Positions 1 to 64,000 of a stretch of 64,000 nucleotides of DNA are shown here, in pieces. Every line of letters starts with the position of its first letter. Positions within the stretch are counted from its first letter, which is position 1. This DNA comes from a virus, in IMG/VR virus record IMGVR_UViG_3300036818_000127, positions 45,418-109,417 of that record. One strand, 5' to 3'. The position numbers and the translations under genes are program-made. Under the pieces are notes generated by a model. It was not told where the DNA came from. It searched no databases and saw nothing but the letters and a program-made list of their open reading frames with translations.

Positions 1-132
1 GTGGAAGCTGCCATACGAGGGGGAACCAATATCAAGACGCTCCAACAAGCGGGTGGCTGGTCAAGTCCCGCTATGCCACTGAGATACGCCGCAAAGGCTG
101 AAATTTCAAATGAAGGAGTAAAACTAGGATGA
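1..132 (+). CDS. 3' end of tyrosine recombinase/integrase (truncated by window edge)
   Basis: Frame 1 reads VEAAIRGGTNIKTLQQAGGWSSPAMPLRYAAKAEISNEGVKLG*. The GGW...M..RY box-II motif carries the catalytic Tyr. The stop overlaps the ATG at 129. Confidence 0.8.
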   Translation: MEAAIRGGTNIKTLQQAGGWSSPAMPLRYAAKAEISNEGVKLG

Positions 133-470
133 ACCAACCAAATGATGACCGCTTCAAGAAGATAGAGGAACGCATTGACAAACTGGAACAAGAGAATACA
201 AAGAGCATAGAAGCTGAGCGGCTCCTGCTCCGGCTATCAAGGATGCATGACGTGAACGTAAAGGAACTGCTCGCCCTTTGCGGAAGGATCGATCTTGATA
301 CAGGAGATGCACGCGAGCGATTTGACGTGATTGAGAGGACTCTTTTCGATCATGGGAATAAGCTTGACAGAATAGAGGAACACCAGTTCAAGCAAGATGA
401 CAGGCTTGGCAGGATAGAGGAATTGCTTGTACAGTTGGTTACTAGACTACCACAGCCAGAGGGGGAATAG
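129..470 (+). CDS. coiled-coil hypothetical protein
   Basis: 113 aa, heptad-like DRxxRIEE repeats, ATGA-coupled to the integrase. Confidence 0.65.
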   Translation: MNQPNDDRFKKIEERIDKLEQENTKSIEAERLLLRLSRMHDVNVKELLALCGRIDLDTGDARERFDVIERTLFDHGNKLDRIEEHQFKQDDRLGRIEELLVQLVTRLPQPEGE

Positions 471-588
471 GGAGATTGACAGACTATCTAGTCTAAAATA
501 TACTTTTATTATCAAACAAAAGTACAGGTCCACCTAGCTCTTGTTTTGCCGCCAGAGAGAAGGCGGCAAATTTCTTGAAAGGACAGCA

Positions 589-1095
589 ATGATTGATGAA
601 TTCCTAGAAAATGCTAAAAATGGAGAGCATGAGGCGCTGAGTGAGATCTATCGGCATTTCTTTCCTAAGATATTTCATTTTATCCTAAAAAGGGTGGGTT
701 TTCATGAAACAGCAGAAGATCTCACCTCAGAGGTTTTTATTCAAATGCTCAAACATATCCGTCTATTTAAATCAGAAAATGCTATGGCGTTTCACAAGTG
801 GCTTTATCAGATTGCGAGGGCAGTGATAGCAGAGCATTACAGAAAAAGAAAAGATATACTCTCACTTGAACAGAATGATGAGAGCATCTTCGATGAAATC
901 GCCCAGCATGAGGCATGGCTGGATCTTGTCCAAGGAATCAACAAGCTCCAAGACTCGCACCGTCAACTCATTATCGACCGCTTTATTTTAGGGTATAATC
1001 AGGCAACCATCGCAAGGCTTACAGGAAAGAAAGAGGGTACAATTAGAGTAACTGAATATCGTGCAACACAAAATCTACGAAAATTGATACGTTGA
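589..1095 (+). CDS. ECF (RpoE-like) sigma-70 factor
   Basis: Region 2 motifs (AEDLTSEVF, FHKWLYQIAR) and region 4 HTH (GYNQATIARLTGKKEGTIRVTEYRA). SD GAAAGGA lies before ATG 589. Confidence 0.9.
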   Translation: MIDEFLENAKNGEHEALSEIYRHFFPKIFHFILKRVGFHETAEDLTSEVFIQMLKHIRLFKSENAMAFHKWLYQIARAVIAEHYRKRKDILSLEQNDESIFDEIAQHEAWLDLVQGINKLQDSHRQLIIDRFILGYNQATIARLTGKKEGTIRVTEYRATQNLRKLIR

Positions 1096-1216
1096 GAAGG
1101 CGGGTTTTATTTTTTTGTTTCAAGAGAAAGCCGCTCGCAGGCAAAGTTGCCAGTACCACGAGCGGCCATATTGTGATCTCCCCAGACACAATAATATCAG
1201 GATACATTATAGCATA

Positions 1217-1360
1217 CTACCTTTTTAGGATGTCCTCTGGGATAGAGAACAGGCCGAGCTGGCCCCGACAGTAGATCTCAGGGTCTATCGGTCGGGCATT
1301 TTCCAGGACAAGCCCATAAGGGCCACAGAACCAAGGATCATCACTCTCTGTCACAGCAGT
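1217..1360 (-). pseudogene. ASCH-domain C-terminal fragment
   Basis: Minus frame reads VTESDDPWFCGPYGLVLENARPIDPEIYCRGQLGLF..*, typical of an ASCH C-terminus. No intact N-terminal half is in frame. Confidence 0.5.
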
Positions 1361-1405
1361 CGCACCACACAAGCTCTCGTACAATTTTTTCACAGATATC
1401 GCACT

Positions 1406-30434: not shown

Positions 30435-31664
30435 ATGGAATCTAATCTTCTTGCAGAGATGCAAAATGATGGGTACAGCGGAAAGCGTAAGGCAACAACG
30501 AGAGGTGGGGAATGGCATGGACCTTGTATCTTGCCAGGGTGCAGCGGACTCGGCAAGGATAGATTAAGGGTACAGCCTAATCACGGACCCTATGGGTTTT
30601 TTGAATGCAGAGTGTGTAGCGAGAGCGGCTCACTAGTGGACTACCTAATACTCAAGAGGGGACATACTAAGCACCAAGCCCTTGTACAGGCAGGTTGGAA
30701 GCCCAAGGATGGGAGTGAGCCGCAATTTCTTCTCCCTAAAAATGTGCTCACTGGTGATGCCTACCTAAGACATTTAGCGCCGCCTCTAGTATGGCAGGCA
30801 CAGGCAAAGGTCTTTGTTGAATACTGCACTAGTGTCCTCTGGGGGGATAAAGGACAACAAGCATTAGACTATCTGCGGGGACGTGGGCTAACAGACGAGA
30901 TCATCAAGATGGCACAGATAGGATACAATCCTGCAAGGTTACGCCAGTCGGCGGAAAAGTGGGGGCGCAAAGAGCATGGATTTCTGGCGGCAGGTATTAC
31001 GATCCCATGGTTTGTCGGGGAAGGTGAATTGTGGAGGGTGACTATCCGCGATGAGAAGATAGCAGATGGCGAGGGGCGCTACAAGCAAATAGCAGGCAGC
31101 TCTAATGGGCTCTATCTCTCTTTTACCCTCAGCTATGATCGACCCGTGGTATTAGTGGAAGGGGAAATCGATGCACTTTCTATTGCTCAGGAGTGTGGAC
31201 ATGATGTTTCAGTATGCGCAACTGGAGGAACCATCGGGAGTCACTCAGCTAGATGCCTCGGCGCACTTGCAGGGAAGGACCTTGTACTCATTGCATTTGA
31301 TGCTGAGGAAAGAGGCGATAAAGCATCAGATTGGTGGCTCAACCGACTAGAGAATGCGCAGCGGCTCCGACCGTTCTGGAAGGATGCCAATCAGATGTTG
31401 CAGGAGGGTGTGGACTTGCTAGAGGATTGGATACTGCCGAGACTTGAGTCTATTCTCTATGGTCCTAGTCCTATACCTACTCCCGAGAGCAGTGATGTAT
31501 GCAAAGGATGTGGGTGTCCTTTCCCGTCATTTGAGGGCTGGGAACCTGAGAATATTCCAATGGATGATGTTATGAACTTTGACCCTGAAGATGGTGAAAT
31601 GTACTGTGAAAAATGTAGGCCAGGCCTTTTTGAACAAGTATGCGAATTAGCACAAGCATCATAA
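30435..31664 (+). CDS. DNA primase (Zn-binding + TOPRIM)
   Basis: EWHGPC..C/CRVC zinc region, ALDYLRGRGL, VLVEGEIDAL, AFDAE, KDAN. Confidence 0.85.
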   Translation: MESNLLAEMQNDGYSGKRKATTRGGEWHGPCILPGCSGLGKDRLRVQPNHGPYGFFECRVCSESGSLVDYLILKRGHTKHQALVQAGWKPKDGSEPQFLLPKNVLTGDAYLRHLAPPLVWQAQAKVFVEYCTSVLWGDKGQQALDYLRGRGLTDEIIKMAQIGYNPARLRQSAEKWGRKEHGFLAAGITIPWFVGEGELWRVTIRDEKIADGEGRYKQIAGSSNGLYLSFTLSYDRPVVLVEGEIDALSIAQECGHDVSVCATGGTIGSHSARCLGALAGKDLVLIAFDAEERGDKASDWWLNRLENAQRLRPFWKDANQMLQEGVDLLEDWILPRLESILYGPSPIPTPESSDVCKGCGCPFPSFEGWEPENIPMDDVMNFDPEDGEMYCEKCRPGLFEQVCELAQAS

Positions 31665-32368
31665 GGAAAGAGCAAGATGAGCAAACGAAAGAATTTACAC
31701 CTTCTTAGGGTTGGAAAGATAAAACAATCCTTTACAGGGTTGATTGAGAGTATCTCTGATCAAGACCGCTTATGGTTTGAGCAACATCCTAGTAAAGATC
31801 AGTATGTGCGTGATTATAAGGCTGGAGAGTTTAAAGATCAGACACCCCCTATGAATACACAAGTTCTAGTCACAAAAGTTAGTGCAGATGTAAGAGTCCG
31901 CACAGTTATCCCCTATGATGTTGCGGATTTATCTCAGTCAGGTATGTACATATTCATACCTGAGGTAGAAGAAATAAGAGATAAGATGGGCCATATAAAG
32001 TTTGAAGAGTAGCGTGTCATATAGCCAAAGGATACAAGGAATTGATAACAAGAGAGCAAGCACTTAGTGCACTAGCGCAACACTATGATTTATCGTTAAT
32101 GTATGAATTAGAACCAAGTAGGACAGAGTTTCTAGTTGATTTAGCATTTGAGTGTATTGCAATGGAAGAGTCAAAACAGTCTGCTCTTGAAGGTCTCAAG
32201 ATGTATGCAACTCGACTCGTTGGCCGAAATGCTATATGCCCAGAGCTTCGGACAGCCGCATATGAGAGATTACTATATAGCTATCTCGACTGGTTGTTAT
32301 CACCTTCAGAGTTGGAGGGTATAGGTCAGGAGCAAGCCTCCTAGTGGAAATGTGTAGAGTATAGCTGC

Positions 32369-32397
32369 TTGACAGTTTATGGAAGATATGCTATACT
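32369..32397 (+). promoter_or_regulatory. conserved early promoter, copy 8 (before DNA polymerase)
   Basis: exact consensus. Confidence 0.85.
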
Positions 32398-32426
32398 TAA
32401 AAGAGAGATAAGAGAAAGGACTTCTG

Positions 32427-34442
32427 ATGATAACAAAAAAAGAGAAAGACCTCGAAAAACTGGCACTATGGAATAACCCGATGAGAGCAGCTTTTGAGCC
32501 ACGAACAGAACGTCATATTGTGGCGGCCCCCTCGAATGTCGAGACTACTGAAGAAGCTGTCAACCCTGCTGACCATCCTGTTATAGAATCGCACTCTTCT
32601 GTATGTGTCTCAACTCCAGAGCAGGTCCATGATATTGCACAGCAACTTCAAGGCAATGCTACCTATGTTATGGACCTGGAGACGACAGGGTTAAACCCTC
32701 GACAGAACAAGATCATTACCATAGCATTCGGTACTCCTGATCAGGTCTACATTATTGATGTGAGAAGGTTTCATTCAGCTTCAGAGAGTCTTCGAACTCT
32801 CTGGTGCGAGGCATTGCAGAGGCTCTTTCACCGAGAGGATATTGTGTGGGCTGGGCATAACCTGAAGTTCGACTGGTCTTTCGTGGCTGTCCAGTTCGGG
32901 GTACGGATGAGGCGGGTGTATGACACGATGATAGTAGAGAAGCTAATTCACAATGGCGCGAGGGTTTCTGCATCCCTCAAGAATGCCGCCGCTCGCTATG
33001 GTATTGCTGTCTCGAAGGAAGAGGTCAACTACTTCATTGGTCTGGACCAACGCCCGAAAGAGTGGTCAGCGCCAATCCCTCCTGCCCAGATCACCTATAT
33101 TGAACAGGACATCATTGTCCCCCACCAGCTTATAGCTTCCCAGCAGGTAGAAATAGATAGGCAGTCTTTGGGCCAAGTTATTGAACTTGAGAATGCTGCC
33201 CTCCCAGCAATAGCTTCTATTGAAGTCAATGGGCTACTAGTGGATGTTGCAAGGTGGCGCCATATCCTGGAGGCAAAGCTGGCCAGGAAAGAAAAGTTAG
33301 AAGGGGAATTGAAATCCGTCTTATCAAATGCTCTTGCAGATAAGGCAGAGCAGGATACTGACGGTAAACTTTTTTCAGTACGTCCCGACATCCATATCAA
33401 CCTAGGCTCGCGCGATCAGCTTCTCTCAGCACTGGCATGCCTTGGTGTACGGGTAGATGATACGAAAGCCGAGAGCCTAGAGGAAGTAAAGGGTCAACAT
33501 GATTCTGTGGGCCAGCTATTAGACTGGAAGAACCTTGAAAAGTTCATTACTGCTTTCGGAGACTCTGTTCTCGGGAAAGTTGAAGAGGATAGCCGCATCC
33601 ATGCCACCTTTGAACAGCTAGGAGCAGTGTCTGGTCGGATCATCTGCCGAGATCCAAACCTCCAGCAGATACCTAAGTCCAACAATCATGATGAGGATAT
33701 CCGTAGTTGCTTCGTGGCCCCATCTGGATACAAGTTCTTAGTAGCGGACCTCTCTAACATCGAACTGCGCATCCTGGCCGAGGTATCTGGTGACCCTACC
33801 ATGCTCCGCTTCTTTGATGAAGGAAAGGACCTTCATGCAGAAACAGCGAGGCTTATGTTCAAGCTTGGCCCTGATGTTGATACCAAGAAGCACTTGATCA
33901 ATGGGGTAAAGGCTAGGGATATTGCTAAGACCATCAACTTTGGGATTGCCTATGGTATGGGTCCTGGAGGGCTGGCGGCACGTATCGGAGTTGATCCCGA
34001 TGCAGCTAAGAAGCTTCTCTCAACATACAAAGAGACATACAAGGGAGTAGTCACATACCTAGACCAGTCATCACGGGAGGCAATTAATCAGAAGTATGTC
34101 ACCTCCCTCTCCGGCAGGCGCAGGACCTTTCTCCCAGAAACTCTTGCTGATAGGCAGTCACGCGGAGAGGCAGAGCGAGCTGCAAGAAACCACCCGATCC
34201 AGGGAGCCAATGCCGATATCCTTAAACGAGCATTGGCACTACTCTCTGAACAATTGCCAGAAGACGTGCATATAGTGCTTACTGTACATGATGAAATTTG
34301 TTTAGAGGCACCAGATATTAAAGTAGAGGAAGCAACCAACATCTTAAAAGAGTGCATGATGCAGGCATGTAGGAAGTTTTTACACAGGGTAGAGATACCA
34401 GAGATTGACGTATTAGTAGCAGGATACTGGATCAAGGGTTAA
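32427..34442 (+). CDS. polA: family A DNA polymerase (3'-5' exonuclease + polymerase)
   Basis: ExoI DLETTG, ExoII HNLKFD, motif A DLSNIELR, motif B AKTINFGIAYG, motif C TVHDEI. Confidence 0.95.
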   Translation: MITKKEKDLEKLALWNNPMRAAFEPRTERHIVAAPSNVETTEEAVNPADHPVIESHSSVCVSTPEQVHDIAQQLQGNATYVMDLETTGLNPRQNKIITIAFGTPDQVYIIDVRRFHSASESLRTLWCEALQRLFHREDIVWAGHNLKFDWSFVAVQFGVRMRRVYDTMIVEKLIHNGARVSASLKNAAARYGIAVSKEEVNYFIGLDQRPKEWSAPIPPAQITYIEQDIIVPHQLIASQQVEIDRQSLGQVIELENAALPAIASIEVNGLLVDVARWRHILEAKLARKEKLEGELKSVLSNALADKAEQDTDGKLFSVRPDIHINLGSRDQLLSALACLGVRVDDTKAESLEEVKGQHDSVGQLLDWKNLEKFITAFGDSVLGKVEEDSRIHATFEQLGAVSGRIICRDPNLQQIPKSNNHDEDIRSCFVAPSGYKFLVADLSNIELRILAEVSGDPTMLRFFDEGKDLHAETARLMFKLGPDVDTKKHLINGVKARDIAKTINFGIAYGMGPGGLAARIGVDPDAAKKLLSTYKETYKGVVTYLDQSSREAINQKYVTSLSGRRRTFLPETLADRQSRGEAERAARNHPIQGANADILKRALALLSEQLPEDVHIVLTVHDEICLEAPDIKVEEATNILKECMMQACRKFLHRVEIPEIDVLVAGYWIKG

Positions 34443-36385: not shown

Positions 36386-36396
36386 ATGCATCAAAA

Positions 36397-36655
36397 ATTG
36401 CAGTACCCTCAAGGCGGGTCGATGGATTGCAACTCGACAGGAATGCGCGGCCAGGTCTCTAGCATGATCAATTGCAGTACCCTCAAGGCGGGTCGATGGA
36501 TTGCAACTGGAATATCCTCTCCAGTAGATATCAACATACATCGGATTGCAGTACCCTCAAGGCGGGTCGATGGATTGCAACTTAGAAAGTCATTCGAGAG
36601 ACACTTCCCTGATTTTGTATTGCAGTACCCTCAAGGCGGGTCGATGGATTGCAAC
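36397..36655 (-). CRISPR. CRISPR mini-array: 4 identical 37-bp repeats, 3 spacers of 37 nt
   Basis: ATTGCAGTACCCTCAAGGCGGGTCGATGGATTGCAAC at 36397, 36471, 36545 and 36619. Minus orientation is inferred from the leader-like region with TTGACA on the right and the terminator on the left. Confidence 0.95.
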
Positions 36656-36826
36656 TGCCGCAGCATATAAATCTTGAAAGACCCTACCACTCAACTTTTA
36701 TCGCATGAGCCCTCTCTTGATCTTCTCAGCGCGGTGATTTCTTTTGTTTTGCTAAGGAAAAGCATACCAGATCTGTCAAGTTTCGCAAATTGGTTTTTGT
36801 TAAAATATGGCGTCGATTTGCGAGGA

Positions 36827-37337: not shown

Positions 37338-37600
37338 AATATACCCTCAGATGGATCGATGGAAATGAAAAGTATTAGTCACCTAATTCAGTTGCAGTAT
37401 CCTCAGATGGATCGAAAAGTAAATCTGAACTATCGACTAAAGTAGTTGCAGTACCCTACCAACGGGTCGAATTGGTTAAAGTAGAGAGTATACCCCTATA
37501 CAGTTGCAGTACCCTCTAACGGGTCTAAGTGCAGAAAGCGAGTATCAAACATATGAATACCGTTGCAGTATCCTAGCTCGGATCAACAGAGCTAGGATAC
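37338..37600 (-). CRISPR. degenerate CRISPR-like array: ~5 diverged repeats with short spacers
   Basis: GTTGCAGTA(C/T)CCT...GG(A/G)TC at 37391, 37445, 37503 and 37562, plus a remnant at ~37341. Period is 54-59 nt versus 74 nt in the canonical array. Confidence 0.75.
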
Positions 37601-44741: not shown

Positions 44742-45554
44742 CTAGGCTTGCGCTTCTCGCAGAGCATCTTTATGATCCATTGCAAAATCTAATCCTGACA
44801 TCTTTACATCAATGATAAAGTTGATATTCCCGCCTCCAGGTTCGATTTCAGTAAATCCAATGTGGCGCATTAGTCCGATCCCGTCTTTTGTATCAGATCT
44901 TGCTGCTAGCATGTTAACAGGTATGCCTCTTTGCCCGAGATTGACAATGTGTCTAAACATTCCTCGAATAAGGATACTTCCCCATTTTCTTCTATTTGCT
45001 TTTGCTAACCCGATATCATTAGATGCCAAACCAAGCAACCATAAGTTAGCAGCCTTGCCTGTCTCAAAGGGAAGTACATCTTCAACATCAATCACTCCAA
45101 AGTTTTGACTTCTGTCCAGTTTAAGTAACCACCACATCTTCTCTTCTGTAATATTCAGGATGAAAATGCATCCTCTTACTTTTCCGCGACTATGTACGAC
45201 AAAACATGATTCTGGATTTCTCTCCAGCCAAGCATTTCTTTTTGCTGAAGTATCATCCCCTCCCCATATTTTTCTAAGCAAGGCAACAATTTCAGGCATA
45301 TCCTCTGGAGTTGCGGGGCGGAAAAGAGTAGGAAGGGCTTGATCTTCTGATTTCCGTTTCTCATCATTCCACTCTTTGATGAGCTTGTCGATATCATCTA
45401 TCTTGTAGAAACCTTGCTTCTCTCCAGGTTCTACAAGACGCTCAATTTTCCCCTCTTTAACAAGGCCGCGAAGCCTACTATCATTGATGTTTCCAAGTTT
45501 TCTTAGGGCTACGGCGGCTCTGCAATAGCCTTTGGGAGGTAGTCCTCTAGTCAT
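44742..45554 (-). CDS. HTH + GNAT-like regulator (repressor-like, divergent from XRE gene)
   Basis: N-terminal HTH, FRPATPEDMPEI GNAT start, GIGLMRHIGF C-terminal motif. Confidence 0.65.
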   Translation of the reverse strand: MTRGLPPKGYCRAAVALRKLGNINDSRLRGLVKEGKIERLVEPGEKQGFYKIDDIDKLIKEWNDEKRKSEDQALPTLFRPATPEDMPEIVALLRKIWGGDDTSAKRNAWLERNPESCFVVHSRGKVRGCIFILNITEEKMWWLLKLDRSQNFGVIDVEDVLPFETGKAANLWLLGLASNDIGLAKANRRKWGSILIRGMFRHIVNLGQRGIPVNMLAARSDTKDGIGLMRHIGFTEIEPGGGNINFIIDVKMSGLDFAMDHKDALREAQA

Positions 45555-46981: not shown

Positions 46982-47404
46982 GTCAGGGACCTGATCCCTT
47001 AAAAGGGATGGGCTTGTAGAGATGGGGGTAGTTTTTGCCCGTCTTCTCTCTAGCTTCACCTGACCAGACCCAGCCAGGGCTGTTCCTAGAAGGCTCATAG
47101 AGAGCGGGAAACAGCTATCGGGCTACGTTAGAGGCGAAATTAGGTACCATAGGATGCGAGGGCCAGTCCGATGCTCTACGGTTGCAGGTTAAACAGGTTT
47201 ACGAGGGTTAGTGCCAGTGCTTGCAACGACAAACCGCTTTCTAACTTCGTCGAGGCCCCCATTACCTGGGAAACCAGTGGGGTTTAGCCGTTCCGTCATA
47301 AAACGGCTCCCCGCAAGGGGATTACTCCTAAACTAATCCAGCCTGCGGGCTACTTCTTTCCTCCCAACCACTAAAAGGGAATGGGTTTCCAGAAAGGATA
47401 ACTG
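46982..47404 (+). mobile_element. non-autonomous IS200/IS605-family element with IscB-type omegaRNA (HEARO-like), no iscB ORF
   Basis: GTCAGGGACC..CCCTTAAAAGGG..GGCTTG, TGACCAGAC, CTACGTT, GGATGC..CCAGTCC, TTAAACAG, AAACC..TAAC..GTCGAGGC..ATTACC; terminal hairpin shared with 9962-10390. Confidence 0.85.
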
Positions 47405-58588: not shown

Positions 58589-58667
58589 CCCACACAACAA
58601 TAATCAAGCCTGCTTCCACAACGGAAAGCAGGCTCTTTTTTTATACCCACAAATGGCTCAATACTTC

Positions 58668-58958
58668 CTACTTTTTCATCTTTACATACAACCTCATCCA
58701 ATATCTTCTACTCTGTTCAATTAGCTCATCTTTCCTTGACTCAACATCTTCGAGCTGCTTTGGGTGGATCTTCCAACGTCCACCACGCCCTCTACTATTG
58801 AGCTTCCTTTCCCTGTCTGCCTGTAACCATCCCTTTCTACACCAAGTACATGCAGTCGCCAGTGATACGTGATATATCTCGCTTACTTGTCTTGTTGTGT
58901 AGTAGTCATGTTCTACACGTAAATTACTAAGAGTCTGCTGATGATACTCTGTTGCCAT
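58668..58958 (-). CDS. HTH_17/MerR-like DNA-binding protein
   Basis: YYTTRQVSEIYHVSLATACTWCRKGWLQA...GGRWKI. Confidence 0.8.
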   Translation of the reverse strand: MATEYHQQTLSNLRVEHDYYTTRQVSEIYHVSLATACTWCRKGWLQADRERKLNSRGRGGRWKIHPKQLEDVESRKDELIEQSRRYWMRLYVKMKK

Positions 58959-59606: not shown

Positions 59607-61298
59607 TCATGCTTTAAATCCTCGTGCAAACTCTTCCCATGTTGTCCGCTCTGCTTCTGGTATCTCCTTTTGCTTCTGCTTCGATCTGAGCTGTAAGAAG
59701 GGAAGCTTGCGCACAATATTGATACCACTCTGCTGTCCTACATCTGTTGTGTACCCACATTCAATGCAATGAAAGAGGTTCTTATCTTCTTTGTCGAAGT
59801 TCTCTTTGCTCACACAGCCACATTGCGAACAAGTGGAAGCCGTGTAAGCACTGCTGACTTTACGGAGTGGTGTTAGACCAGCAATGTCTAGTTTGGTCGC
59901 TAGGAGGTCCTGGAGCTTCTGATATTGCCTTCTCTGGAGTATACGGTTGAAGGCTTTCCCCTTCCCTCCAACACGCTTTTTCGGGGCAATGTAGCTTAGA
60001 TCTTCTACGATCACCTGGGACTGATGTGTACGGGCCATCTCGACAATACTATTAGCTACTTGGTGGACATGGCGGTCTGCAATCCGTGCGCGTCTCCTAT
60101 CCCCTTTCGTTGTTTTTCCCTTTTTCTGCTTGATAGCTATATTCTTTTCAATCGCACCAATTAATCCGTTTAATTCATCGGTACTAACATTGAAAGTTTC
60201 AATGACTTCCTTCCCGTCCAGGGAAACGACAGCCCCAGATGCTAAATAAGAAATAGATCGGTCAATACCTAGGTAGGTCGCTGGCTTTATTCGCTCAGGT
60301 CTGGGGAACTGGAAGGCGACATGGAGCTGGTACTTATCTCCATATTTCATCAGTTTAGCAGACACAGGCCAAGCAGGCTTTACACTAGTATCGCCTGACC
60401 TCTGCGGAAGGAAGGCATGTTTAGTAAAACGTAGCATGTTCTCATGCCACCTTCCCATTTCTAGAGGGACAAGAATGGAGCGAGTCCCATTTCCAAAGGA
60501 CCTGACCTCCTGATACCTGCCCATTCCAAGATGGTAATCCCCCAAGATAGTGTGAGTACTTGTACTGTACCGCTTCAGTCCTGTTTTATGTTCCTGGAAA
60601 CCTTTGTTCCGCATGTAAATATTCTCAGGTTCACGGATATCGATGTATTGTCCATCTATATCGATCCTTCTTCCATGATTGGACAATTCTCCGATAACAT
60701 ACAGTCTCACATAGAATGTGCGCGTCTCTGGATTGTAGAAAATACGGAATCCCTGATCAGGCATGCTATTCCCGAAAGATAAGGGCACCAGCCCTCGCTG
60801 TCGTGTGCGGAGCAGTTGGTCGCGGAGTGTATTCTCTTCTTCTAGGTCATCTGAGATAGTCCGCAGACCTTCTAGTGCGGCCTCTCGCTTTGCATCACGG
60901 TTATCTTCTTCAACCCTGTTAGGGTAGGATGGCTTCTGCTTTTCTGTCAATGACAGTTCAGCGAAACTCAAGAGGGTGCTAGCAATATCTGACTTCATCG
61001 ATGCACGCAGCCGGGCCTCTAGAGGTTCAAGTAACTGGTCCAGATCTGGTATCTTGTTCGTTCGGAAAAGAGCAGTTTCTAATGTCCTAGCATTCGTTAG
61101 CTCTTCTCCATTGCTCTCGCGTACTGCAAATACAGCCATTGCATGCAATTCCTCTGCTGTATAGCTAGAGAAGAAATCAAGGATTGATGTGTAGGCTCTT
61201 GTGTAATTCTGCAATGCCTCATCAAGCACTGCTCTGATGTGTTTCGTGGGGTTGTGGATGGTGAACACTGCTGTTCGGTGAATGTGTTTTCCTGGCAT
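59607..61298 (-). CDS. Cas12/TnpB-family RNA-guided protein (563 aa, Cas12f-like size), RuvC-III apparently degenerate
   Basis: RuvC-I YLGIDRSI, bridge helix, RuvC-II VIVEDL, AYTASTCSQCG..FHCIECGY zinc finger, RuvC-III TDVGQQSGINI. Confidence 0.9.
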   Translation of the reverse strand: MPGKHIHRTAVFTIHNPTKHIRAVLDEALQNYTRAYTSILDFFSSYTAEELHAMAVFAVRESNGEELTNARTLETALFRTNKIPDLDQLLEPLEARLRASMKSDIASTLLSFAELSLTEKQKPSYPNRVEEDNRDAKREAALEGLRTISDDLEEENTLRDQLLRTRQRGLVPLSFGNSMPDQGFRIFYNPETRTFYVRLYVIGELSNHGRRIDIDGQYIDIREPENIYMRNKGFQEHKTGLKRYSTSTHTILGDYHLGMGRYQEVRSFGNGTRSILVPLEMGRWHENMLRFTKHAFLPQRSGDTSVKPAWPVSAKLMKYGDKYQLHVAFQFPRPERIKPATYLGIDRSISYLASGAVVSLDGKEVIETFNVSTDELNGLIGAIEKNIAIKQKKGKTTKGDRRRARIADRHVHQVANSIVEMARTHQSQVIVEDLSYIAPKKRVGGKGKAFNRILQRRQYQKLQDLLATKLDIAGLTPLRKVSSAYTASTCSQCGCVSKENFDKEDKNLFHCIECGYTTDVGQQSGINIVRKLPFLQLRSKQKQKEIPEAERTTWEEFARGFKA

Positions 61299-61386: not shown

Positions 61387-61415
61387 TTGACAACTTGATT
61401 AGCGGCTATTATACT
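61387..61415 (+). promoter_or_regulatory. sigma70 promoter for the ncRNA/array, divergent from the cas12-like gene
   Basis: TTGACA(61387-92)-17 nt-TATACT(61410-15). Confidence 0.85.
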
Positions 61416-61421
61416 CTGCTC

Positions 61422-61925
61422 TGTAATCTTCGGATTGCTTGGGCTCGTGAGCTACGGCTCGGTAGTTGCAGGCCCAATCCCTGGGAGAGTGCCGTATGAC
61501 TTCTGATTCCCTGTTGAGGGATAAGAAGCGAGTCATGGTCATATAGGGTACATTCGTGTGCCTTGTGACTATGCCTTCTCTGATTCCCGATATCGGGAAA
61601 AGGAAGCTTGACACCTTCTGGAGAGAACAACGCCACAAAACCGGAAACGGTACTCGCTTCGCGGTGGCTCCCTTTGGGCCAACTCTCATGTGCAGCACGA
61701 TGAATGAGCAGGGGATGTTGCAACTCTGCTAATCTACTGATGCTTTGATGGGATACACTGCTACAGCCTGGCAGTGGGACGGCTCACTCTCATGTTGCAT
61801 TAGAACTTGTTGAGACGCTCCTTTACAACTGAAGGAATGAAGCCTTTCAGTATTTGTTGCATTATGCTGAAATGCGGTTCTACCTGCTCATAGCTAGTTG
61901 TTGCATAGTTGATGAGCAGGTAGGT
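61422..61925 (+). ncRNA. structured tracr/scout-like RNA leader
   Basis: Dense hairpins with UUCG and GAAA tetraloops (gtaatc-ttcg-gattgc, agggtaca-ttcg-tgtgcctt, accg-gaaa-cggt); four hairpins with UGUUGCA loops; no credible ORF. Confidence 0.75.
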
Positions 61926-61939
61926 GTCTATAAGAGAGT

Positions 61940-64000
61940 CTGTGCAGCTATGTAAGAGGATATATAGCGCAGCATTGCTTGTAACCAATAAGGATAGATG
62001 ACAACATAGAGTATAGGCTGTCGACTGCAACCCGTTACTTGATATGTCAGAGTGTAACTTAGATGGATCTATGCAACCACGGGCTTTTATTTGCAATTGC
62101 AGCAAGCAATATGGCAAGATGCAACAAATGGACAATTTATATGATCCTGCAACCATCAGACAGGGCTACAGCCTGCTCGCTAACCATGCAACCTTGGGAG
62201 AGTTCTGATCGCAATACTGAAGTAGTAGGTGATAATTGCAAGAGGCTGACTGGAAGAGGGAGGGCGCAGCTAGTGCAACCTCAAGCAGTATCAGGGATGC
62301 AACTGATGTGATTGGAGAGGAATGCAGCAACTAGGCACTCCCATCGAGATGCAATACTGGCGATCTATCCATGTAACCATCTTCGTCGGTCCTGCATGCA
62401 ACGTTCTTGACCCTTACTGCAACAAGCAGTTCGCAATCGCAACTTGTATGGTTTAGGCTAGTATTATCCATGTAACTATTGAACGCTGTCCGGCAATGAT
62501 GAGCAACGGTGAAAGGCAAAGTCTAGTGTGCTGCAACTATCTTATAGTCTAGACTAAATGCAATGAATATCAAGGTAAGCCTCGCAACCATTTCAATGCA
62601 ACTAAGAGAAGTATAGGTAGTATAGTGCAACTCACAAATGACGGCAACATCAAGAAGTCACAGTATGCAACCAAGCTACGCGGGACCTTGCAACAACGGG
62701 CAATAGCTATATGCAACAAGAATGTCATATTGGACAGTGCAACAACGAGTAGAAGATTTGCATGCAGCACAAATGAAATACTACATAGCAACATATGGAC
62801 CAGCGATCAAGGGAACTGCAACAAGAGGGCGTTGTCTGGAGGATGTAACACAAGGAGCTAGATAGCGATTGCAACTTTCATAGAGTCACGCAACTGTAGT
62901 AGATGCAATGGTACAAGCTCGTTCACAACTAACATGACACTGCAACAAGCAAGAGACACTGCAACAAAAAGGATATAGGGACAATTGCAATAATCTACGA
63001 TGGCCCCATGCAACCTGATAGAGGAAGATATTCAATAATTGTAACTGAAACCTCCGCAACTATAGAATATGCATTCTAGACTAAGAATTATGCAACTAGT
63101 TGGTTGCTAAGGCATAATGCAGCTATCAGCGGCTAGATATGCAACTTACTTTCAACACACTCTTGCAACATCCATCTCGACATCTCAATTCTATCAATGC
63201 AGCGACTTTGATGTTCCTTACATGCAATGAGTAGAGAAAATGCAACAGCAAAAGAGTGAAGAACGCAACTATCATTGACCAGCTATGCAACTATGGTTCT
63301 CATATCATAATAGTTTATACGCAACTTCTGTAGAGGCATCATGCAACATGTATTGAAAGCATTGCAACCTCATCTGACAGCATCCTGATGCAACATGATT
63401 TCTCTTTGTACATGCATCTCGCAACAACTGGCAATGACATCTACAACGGTAGAGGAATGGGGCATAGCATGCAACTCAGGCAAGTTATCACTGCAACATG
63501 GGGAAGTCTTGCGATATCAATGCAACCAGTGTTCACATACGTGGAAGGAATGCAACATGTTCAATAATATGCAGCCTCAATGGATTTTATGCAACTATTA
63601 GGTAAATAGAGAGCTATGCAACTGATTAACCCTATTCACTCAATATGCAACAAATAGGTGGTACTGCAACACTGATGAGGGTTTTGCATCATCATACCCA
63701 AGATGCAACTATGGCTTTTTGAGGCAACTACGAACATGTCAAATATATGTAACGATCAAGAGAGAACCTAGTGCAACCATGGGCGGGCATGCAATGAGTA
63801 GACATAGCAACAACTGAGTGCAACATTCTTGATCGAGAGAAATGCAACATAAGGGTTATCATAGCAATAGCCAAGCATGAATGATGCAACCATGACAGAG
63901 CAAGCAACACACATGTGGTACATTGCAGCATTGGAAAGCAACTAGAGGGGAAATAAGCAGCAGGTAAACGGAATAATAGATGCAACAATATCTGTAGGAC
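61940..64000 (+). repeat. mini-repeat guide-like array: (A)TGCAAC every ~20-30 nt with unique spacers; runs off the window end
   Basis: About 43 exact TGCAAC plus ~40 single-variant copies by eye, all on the + strand, period not a multiple of 3, no long ORF. Confidence 0.85.

Follow-up and report, generated by a model that had tools for sequence, protein, structure and literature searches.

A predicted cleavage-deficient Cas12f/CasX-like effector encoded by a phage beside a conserved structured RNA and a mini-repeat array

The window analysed here is a 64,000-nucleotide stretch that covers positions 45,418 to 109,417 of the viral record IMGVR_UViG_3300036818_000127. The complete phage record spans 109,417 bp, with direct terminal repeats, a 127-bp terminal overlap and a CheckV completeness estimate of 100%. 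Toward the end of the window lies a gene, present in one copy in the phage genome, for a compact effector protein that we designate P0001. Two small genes follow it on the same strand, and a promoter, a structured RNA and an array of very short repeats are arranged divergently from it, at the following window positions:

58606-58635, terminator-like hairpin after the HTH_17 gene
58668..58958, minus strand, 96-aa HTH_17 gene, also found downstream of the effector in the related phage contig L002
59268..59594, minus strand, 108-aa Trans_reg_C winged-helix gene, immediately downstream of the effector on its strand
59607..61298, minus strand, effector gene P0001, a 563-aa ORF, Cas12f/CasX-like type V, predicted to be cleavage-deficient
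61387..61415, plus strand, sigma-70-type promoter TTGACA-17-TATACT, divergent from the effector, with hexamers invariant in three lineages
61418..61700, plus strand, conserved core of a structured, putative scaffold (tracr-like) RNA, with an invariant GGTAGTTGCA segment
62026..64000, plus strand, array of (A)TGCAAC mini-repeats with a unique segment after each, ~72 units, reaching past the circular junction as far as genome position ~700

The sole Pfam domain detected in P0001 is Cas12f1-like_TNB (PF07282, 35 bits, cut-off 26.3). The protein falls well short of the NCBIfam cut-offs for Cas12e/CasX (NF045604, 59.2 bits, cut-off 200), for Cas12f2, which is the only Cas12f model to match (69.1 bits, cut-off 450), and for TnpB (NF040570, 70.8 bits, cut-off 100; NF038281, 15.9 bits, cut-off 425). 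An AF2 model computed from the family alignment (mean pLDDT 86) predicts the bilobed WED/REC, split RuvC and TNB fold of Cas12 and TnpB proteins. Foldseek ranked AsCas12f and PlmCasX at the top of the matches to this model (E 1e-16 to 1e-15); whole-length matches comprised AsCas12f, PlmCasX, OsCas12f, CasPi, Cas12g and TnpB, and the Foldseek probability was 1.00 against Cas12f, CasX, TnpB and Cas12g. Profile searches likewise returned CasX/Cas12e and Cas12f as the nearest solved relatives of the family by sequence, and the terminal residues, the four zinc-binding cysteines and the C-terminal helix of P0001 are conserved in the family alignment.

An exhaustive profile search assigned at least 177 clusters (50% identity, E <= 1e-30) to the P0001 family, and the relatives of P0001 stem from Ktedonobacteria-type metagenome bins. 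Among GenBank phages, the only hits were TnpB-like genes about 24% identical to P0001, in Salinibacter phages, and a search for loci related to P0001 in genome contigs and viral contigs found none. Two relatives connect the family to CRISPR: L008, in which the catalytic triad is intact, carries a regular array of 37-nt repeats ending TTGCAAC on the reverse strand, and in L005 an array with a 61-nt period adjoins a family member. Since the family is CRISPR-associated, we file P0001 as an unclassified (V-U-like) type V effector that stands outside Cas12e, Cas12f and TnpB proper.

The residues of the RuvC active site and of the zinc ribbon map to the following codons:

59736..59738, minus strand, GGA codon of Gly521, at the RuvC-III catalytic Asp column according to alignments
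59742..59744, minus strand, Asp519 (the 'TTD' Asp), two residues before the catalytic column; D, N, D, N and D in the five members of the clade described below
59757..59831, minus strand, CxxC...CxxC zinc ribbon (C490, C493, C511 and C514), family-invariant
59796..59798, minus strand, Phe501, replacing the zinc-ribbon (TNB) Arg (R501F), fixed in the clade
60003..60005, minus strand, RuvC-II Glu432 (IVEDL), kept according to alignment
60261..60263, minus strand, RuvC-I Asp346 (GIDRS), kept according to alignment

A preliminary description of this DNA had proposed that the third RuvC Asp is replaced by Gly, within a range (59716-59759) that runs from C514 to I528 and is accurate within one base. 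Four kinds of alignment bear out this assignment by placing G521, which lies in the segment CIECGYTTDVGQQSGINIVRK (residues 511-531), in the catalytic column. First, phmmer pairs G521 with the Asp-to-Ala position of four dead CasX/Cas12e structures. Second, the phmmer alignment with CnCas12f1 sets the D of NAD in the G521 column. Third, Asp occupies this column in 20 of the 24 members of the family alignment. Fourth, when the family profile is aligned to OsCas12f, its 'adad' consensus falls on NAD, which supports G521 as the catalytic column. The RuvC-I Asp and the RuvC-II Glu are retained, as the same description had stated: D346 and E432 align with CasX D672 and E769. P0001 is therefore without a complete D-E-D triad, as D346 and E432 are followed by Gly521 at the third position. 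The description had further reported that NAA is replaced by QSG and that RuvC-I reads GIDRS instead of GIDRG/GIDLG. The C-terminal consensus of the family is HADxQAGxNIARK and its canonical motif is thus QAG rather than NAA, so that QSG departs from the norm by one Ala-to-Ser residue only, whereas the change from GIDRG to GIDRS is truly clade-specific in the family alignment.

The catalytic Asp is missing from a clade of five proteins that are 65-77% identical and have G, Y, Y, Y and H in its column; the His belongs to P0041, a fragment that is the fifth member and shares 77% identity with P0001. In a maximum-likelihood tree, P0001-P0004 are monophyletic (support 100/100) and nested among Asp-bearing members. 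The Asp is ancestral in the family, with Asp in 20 of 24 core members and D-E-D in 109 of 151 wider-family members, and was lost in one monophyletic clade. The varied composition of the column suggests that constraint on it has relaxed, and not that one particular residue has taken over catalysis. Further changes fixed in the clade around the active site are G348S, A354S, A520V, A529V and W534F, and E513, in the zinc ribbon, is the only clade-specific acidic residue within the RuvC half.

Catalytic residues have been lost repeatedly in the P0001 family. In the wider family (n = 151; raw member counts in which kinship is ignored), 109 members have D-E-D and 42 (28%) are without the canonical triad; variants seen in the family include NED, HED, DEY, DEG, DEH and DGD. 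The RuvC-I residue is N in P0014 and N or H in the P0021-P0024 clade, and the RuvC-II residue is G in P0015. Inactivation of TnpB and Cas12 proteins was found to be widespread in a published survey (PMC10691335).

The TNB arginine shows a related pattern. Arg occupies column 501 in all 14 of the intact-triad core-family members and in 97 of the 109 D-E-D members of the wider family, and in only ~49% of the wider-family members with an altered triad, again by raw counts. Arg in this column goes along with an intact triad, its share among D-E-D members being put at 92%. The Phe501 column of P0001 aligns to the Arg of the OsCas12f KANR motif and, from this alignment and the spacing, we infer that R501 of the family corresponds to R490 of Un1Cas12f, an active-site residue that is essential for cleavage and whose substitution abolishes cutting (PMC8053092).

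We interpret these changes as a probable loss of dsDNA cutting in P0001. The preliminary description had suggested a DNase-dead or attenuated protein, and this view gains support from the ancestral state of the Asp, its clade-wide loss, R501F and the purifying selection described below. The persistence of two of the three acidic RuvC residues counts against inactivation. A third-Asp mutant of FnCas12a reportedly showed reduced rather than abolished cleavage (Zetsche et al. 2015), so that residual or nicking activity of P0001 is possible.

A nuclease that is attenuated or re-wired would rely on D346, E432 and a substitute residue (D519, or His in P0041) for RuvC activity that is weak, nicking, or directed at ssDNA or RNA, as in those TnpB branches where RuvC-III has been rearranged. 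Conservation of D346 and E432 is strict in the clade, the model sets D519 next to the site, at the predicted end of the strand before the catalytic helix, and RuvC-III branches with an Asp-to-His change have been proposed to be still active (PMC10691335). Nevertheless, the replacement varies between G, Y and H with no single residue taking over, the TNB Arg is also lost, and the RuvC half has gained no clade-specific acidic residue other than E513 of the zinc ribbon. The nearby TTD Asp, which the preliminary description had named, is disfavoured as a substitute catalytic residue because its position is N in two of the five clade members. On this balance, we regard a re-wired nuclease as unlikely. 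The preliminary description had also considered that the protein might still process RNA. RuvC-dependent RNA processing by P0001 appears unlikely by analogy, because in Cas12c and Cas12j the processing of pre-crRNA by RuvC requires an intact site.

The effector gene is maintained. Five lineages carry a full-length ORF, and comparison of the window with the effector genes of L001-L003 yielded pN values of 0.19-0.20 at a saturated pS of ~0.82. L002 and L003 are the closest pair, with a dN/dS of 0.17. These values are a clear sign that the gene is under purifying selection despite the predicted catalytic loss, and a pseudogene reading was rejected on the L002-L003 ratio. A decaying remnant of a formerly active nuclease, without present function, would account for the loss of catalytic residues and for the share of the wider family that is without the canonical triad. 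It is hard to reconcile with strong purifying selection on an ORF that is full length in five lineages, and with the joint conservation of both protein termini, the zinc ribbon, and the adjacent promoter and RNA; we consider it highly improbable. In the L002-L003 pair, the C-terminal halves of the effector genes are near-identical (pS 0.007) and the N-terminal part has diverged, for a pS of 0.23 overall, a pattern that suggests recent recombination inside the gene.

Divergently from the effector, neither promoter hexamer varies among three lineages that have reached saturation at synonymous sites. In the adjoining scaffold RNA, 20 of 48 predicted pairs are maintained via two-sided changes among three lineages, and a search of Rfam with this RNA matched no family. 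The promoter, the covarying RNA and the mini-repeat array are kept in L001-L004 and in L007, and mini-repeat arrays adjoin the effector gene at the loci of all five close homologues; in L002, L003 and L007, seven complete 37-nt repeats are preserved beside the gene as well. Together with the regular arrays of L008 and L005, this gives P0001 the conserved linkage to CRISPR arrays or guide-encoding loci that marks type V effectors. The adaptation module Cas1/Cas2 is optional in type V-U-like systems, and a search for Cas1 (PF01867) in the complete 109-kb virus record gave no match.

A second mini-repeat array lies on the opposite strand at genome positions 31429-33000, before the window start. 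Degenerate full repeats (~36 nt) and a 26-nt exact copy of scaffold sequence (from window position 61649) come ahead of this array, and no effector gene lies beside it. Both arrays together hold ~100 units consisting of ATGCAAC plus a candidate guide. Those units that are common to different phages begin exactly at TGCAAC and run 15-16 nt in the 3' direction, which fixes the reading direction of the array on the plus strand and suggests a guide length of ~15-16 nt. Reading of the array on the effector strand (as GTTGCAT) was rejected in view of the divergent invariant promoter and of the shared units, which begin with TGCAAC on the plus strand. The unique segments of the array at 62026-64000 are C-poor on the plus strand (~15-20% C), an asymmetry that is consistent with a transcribed non-coding array.

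When array segments were compared with their own phage genome at up to two mismatches, 9 matches were obtained, against 6 in a reversed control. This is no excess, and any guide targets would therefore lie outside the phage genome. These comparisons yielded no guide target, a point against the DNA-binder reading proposed below. Such an arrangement could also serve as an anti-defence decoy, in which the dead effector and ~100 handle RNAs would act as competitors or poisons for a host Cas12 that belongs to the same family (with repeats ending TTGCAAC), either by sequestering scaffold RNA or crRNAs or through inactive mixed dimers. The intact-triad relative L008, whose repeats have this ending, sits in a chromosomal context (a nucleoside phosphorylase-like ORF, recognised from its translation only, adjoins it); an inactivated Cas9 encoded by a phage has been suggested to be an anti-CRISPR (PMC12669027), and Cas12f enzymes function as dimers (PMC8053092). 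We nonetheless hold the decoy to be rather improbable, as the 15-16-nt guide segments are conserved between diverged phages, which favours sequence-specific targeting over a simple sponge.

Repeats related to the mini-repeats also occur elsewhere. At 36390-36657 of the window (plus strand), a regular CRISPR array comprises four 37-nt repeats ending GGATTGCAAC and 37-nt spacers; the 3' end of its repeats is identical to the mini-repeats, and the array may be used by the P0001 effector or by a host relative. About 700 bp beyond it, four shortened GTTGCAGTA(C/T)CCT units are found at 37380-37600. At L006 2446-3184, irregularly spaced partial repeats (core GGGCGYGTGGGATGAGG, spacing 47-160 nt) come after a distant family member with N at RuvC-I; L005, a relative of L006, has a similar repeat in its regular array. 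Nuclease loss may thus have gone together with repeat shrinkage on more than one occasion. When IMG/VR was scanned for three spaced ATGCAAC motifs, most of the matches listed were chance occurrences. The densest of the matches listed, L051, L052 and L076, were rejected as guide arrays, being tandem repeats in coding sequence whose periods are multiples of three, and no P0001 family member was found in the four searchable records from the matches listed. A limited literature search found no published description of mini-repeat guide arrays.

Two further elements are linked to RNA-guided systems of other kinds. The window contains a full-length match to the Rfam family HEARO (IscB omega-RNA) at 46982-47265 on the plus strand (102.9 bits, E 4.5e-20); no ORF of at least 100 aa follows it on the plus strand, and it looks like an orphan omega-type RNA. 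The related phage contig L002 encodes, at the far end of its mini-repeat array (101-1378, minus strand), a canonical IS605-type TnpB that is unrelated to the putatively dead effector. This TnpB is 425 aa long, its DRDTNAAINI motif is intact, and its domains are OrfB_IS605 and TNB.

We propose that P0001, with fair probability, binds DNA under RNA guidance, is naturally deficient in cleavage and serves the phage in silencing. In this mechanism, a phage-borne compact Cas12-like protein would have lost its cleaving site and kept its RNA- and DNA-binding architecture. It would load short guides of ~15-16 nt, each located after a 7-nt ATGCAAC handle, and this handle would pair with GUUGCA segments of the scaffold RNA. 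The resulting complex would bind complementary DNA of the host or of competing elements, rather than of the phage itself, and would act there as a roadblock or repressor instead of a nuclease, like Cas12m, Cas12k and TldR.

A more specific reading, which we put forward tentatively, is that the phage carries a multiplexed natural 'CRISPRi' device. It would combine a dead Cas12, a scaffold RNA transcribed separately from a divergent promoter and ~100 guides in two arrays, with the repeat shrunk to the 7-nt ATGCAAC plus a ~15-16-nt guide; the arrays would be maintained without Cas1/Cas2, some guides would be phage-conserved, and many host or rival loci could be silenced at once. If this reading is true, loss of the catalytic Asp would represent the step from an immune nuclease family to a binder.

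Inactivated Cas12 and TnpB proteins are already known as a kind, and the Asp-to-Gly change alone would be one more case of a documented phenomenon; the interest comes from the surrounding system. Each of the naturally dead Cas12 and TnpB proteins described so far (Cas12k, Cas12m, TldR and dCas12f-sigmaE) exposed a new use of RNA guidance. What is new is that P0001, from an uncharacterised CasX/Cas12f-like family, is phage-borne, has no adaptation module and is tied to mini-repeat arrays. Since intact and inactivated relatives coexist, the family forms a natural series for the changes that lead from cutter to binder. At 563 aa, P0001 itself may represent a compact scaffold for DNA binding whose guide handles are very short.

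Among known systems, Cas12e/CasX comes first: of all solved structures it matches the family profile best by sequence (E 3e-20). It shares with the P0001 family the C-terminal CG...HAD.QA..NIAR motif followed by a (W)LFL helix and, like the P0001 locus, it has a separate scaffold RNA beside the array. The two differ in length (~980 aa for CasX, 563 aa for P0001), and P0001 is without the large CasX insertions and without the catalytic Asp. Cas12f (Cas14) and IS605 TnpB are similar to P0001 in size and in their CxxC..CxxC TNB, AsCas12f being the best whole-fold match (E 1e-16), and they have in common with intact-triad members of the family the conserved TNB Arg. By contrast, both the Asp and the Arg are lost in the P0001 clade, and the Cas12f2 and TnpB scores are below threshold. 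The locus also departs from IS200/IS605 TnpB in that its conserved RNA is divergent and upstream instead of being a 3' omega RNA, and no TnpA was seen.

TldR guides are short. P0001 appears to have the inactivated RuvC that defines TldR proteins, and TldR and dCas12f-sigmaE resemble it as naturally nuclease-dead TnpB/Cas12 descendants that bind DNA, some of which are reportedly phage-encoded (PMC13622181). However, each TldR or dCas12f-sigmaE gene has a single guide and adjoins a fixed regulon (fliC, opp, sigmaE), whereas the P0001 locus has ~100 guides in arrays and its neighbours are the wHTH and HTH_17 genes, with no regulon partners; the combination of a single guide with linkage to a fliC/oppF regulon is thus not seen at this locus.

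Cas12k of type V-K CAST is, like P0001 as predicted here, a naturally inactive RuvC effector, and it uses a long tracrRNA. Unlike Cas12k, P0001 has no Tn7-like genes visible beside it; the fold similarity is weak (rank 44), and a PDB sequence search with P0001 or with the family profile gave no match to Cas12k.

Cas12m is related only remotely: the profile match to UnCas12m4a (E 1e-4) extends over ~60 C-terminal residues, Cas12m2 ranks 28th in the Foldseek comparison with the P0001 model, and Cas12m loci have ordinary CRISPR arrays, unlike the P0001 locus. Cas12m nevertheless parallels the P0001 family as a set of compact effectors whose RuvC triad varies among clades (HEK, HDD, NED, DND and others) and which silence by binding DNA without cutting it (PMC10442227; PMC11013384); Cas12m2, with its non-canonical triad, binds but does not cut (PMC10442227).
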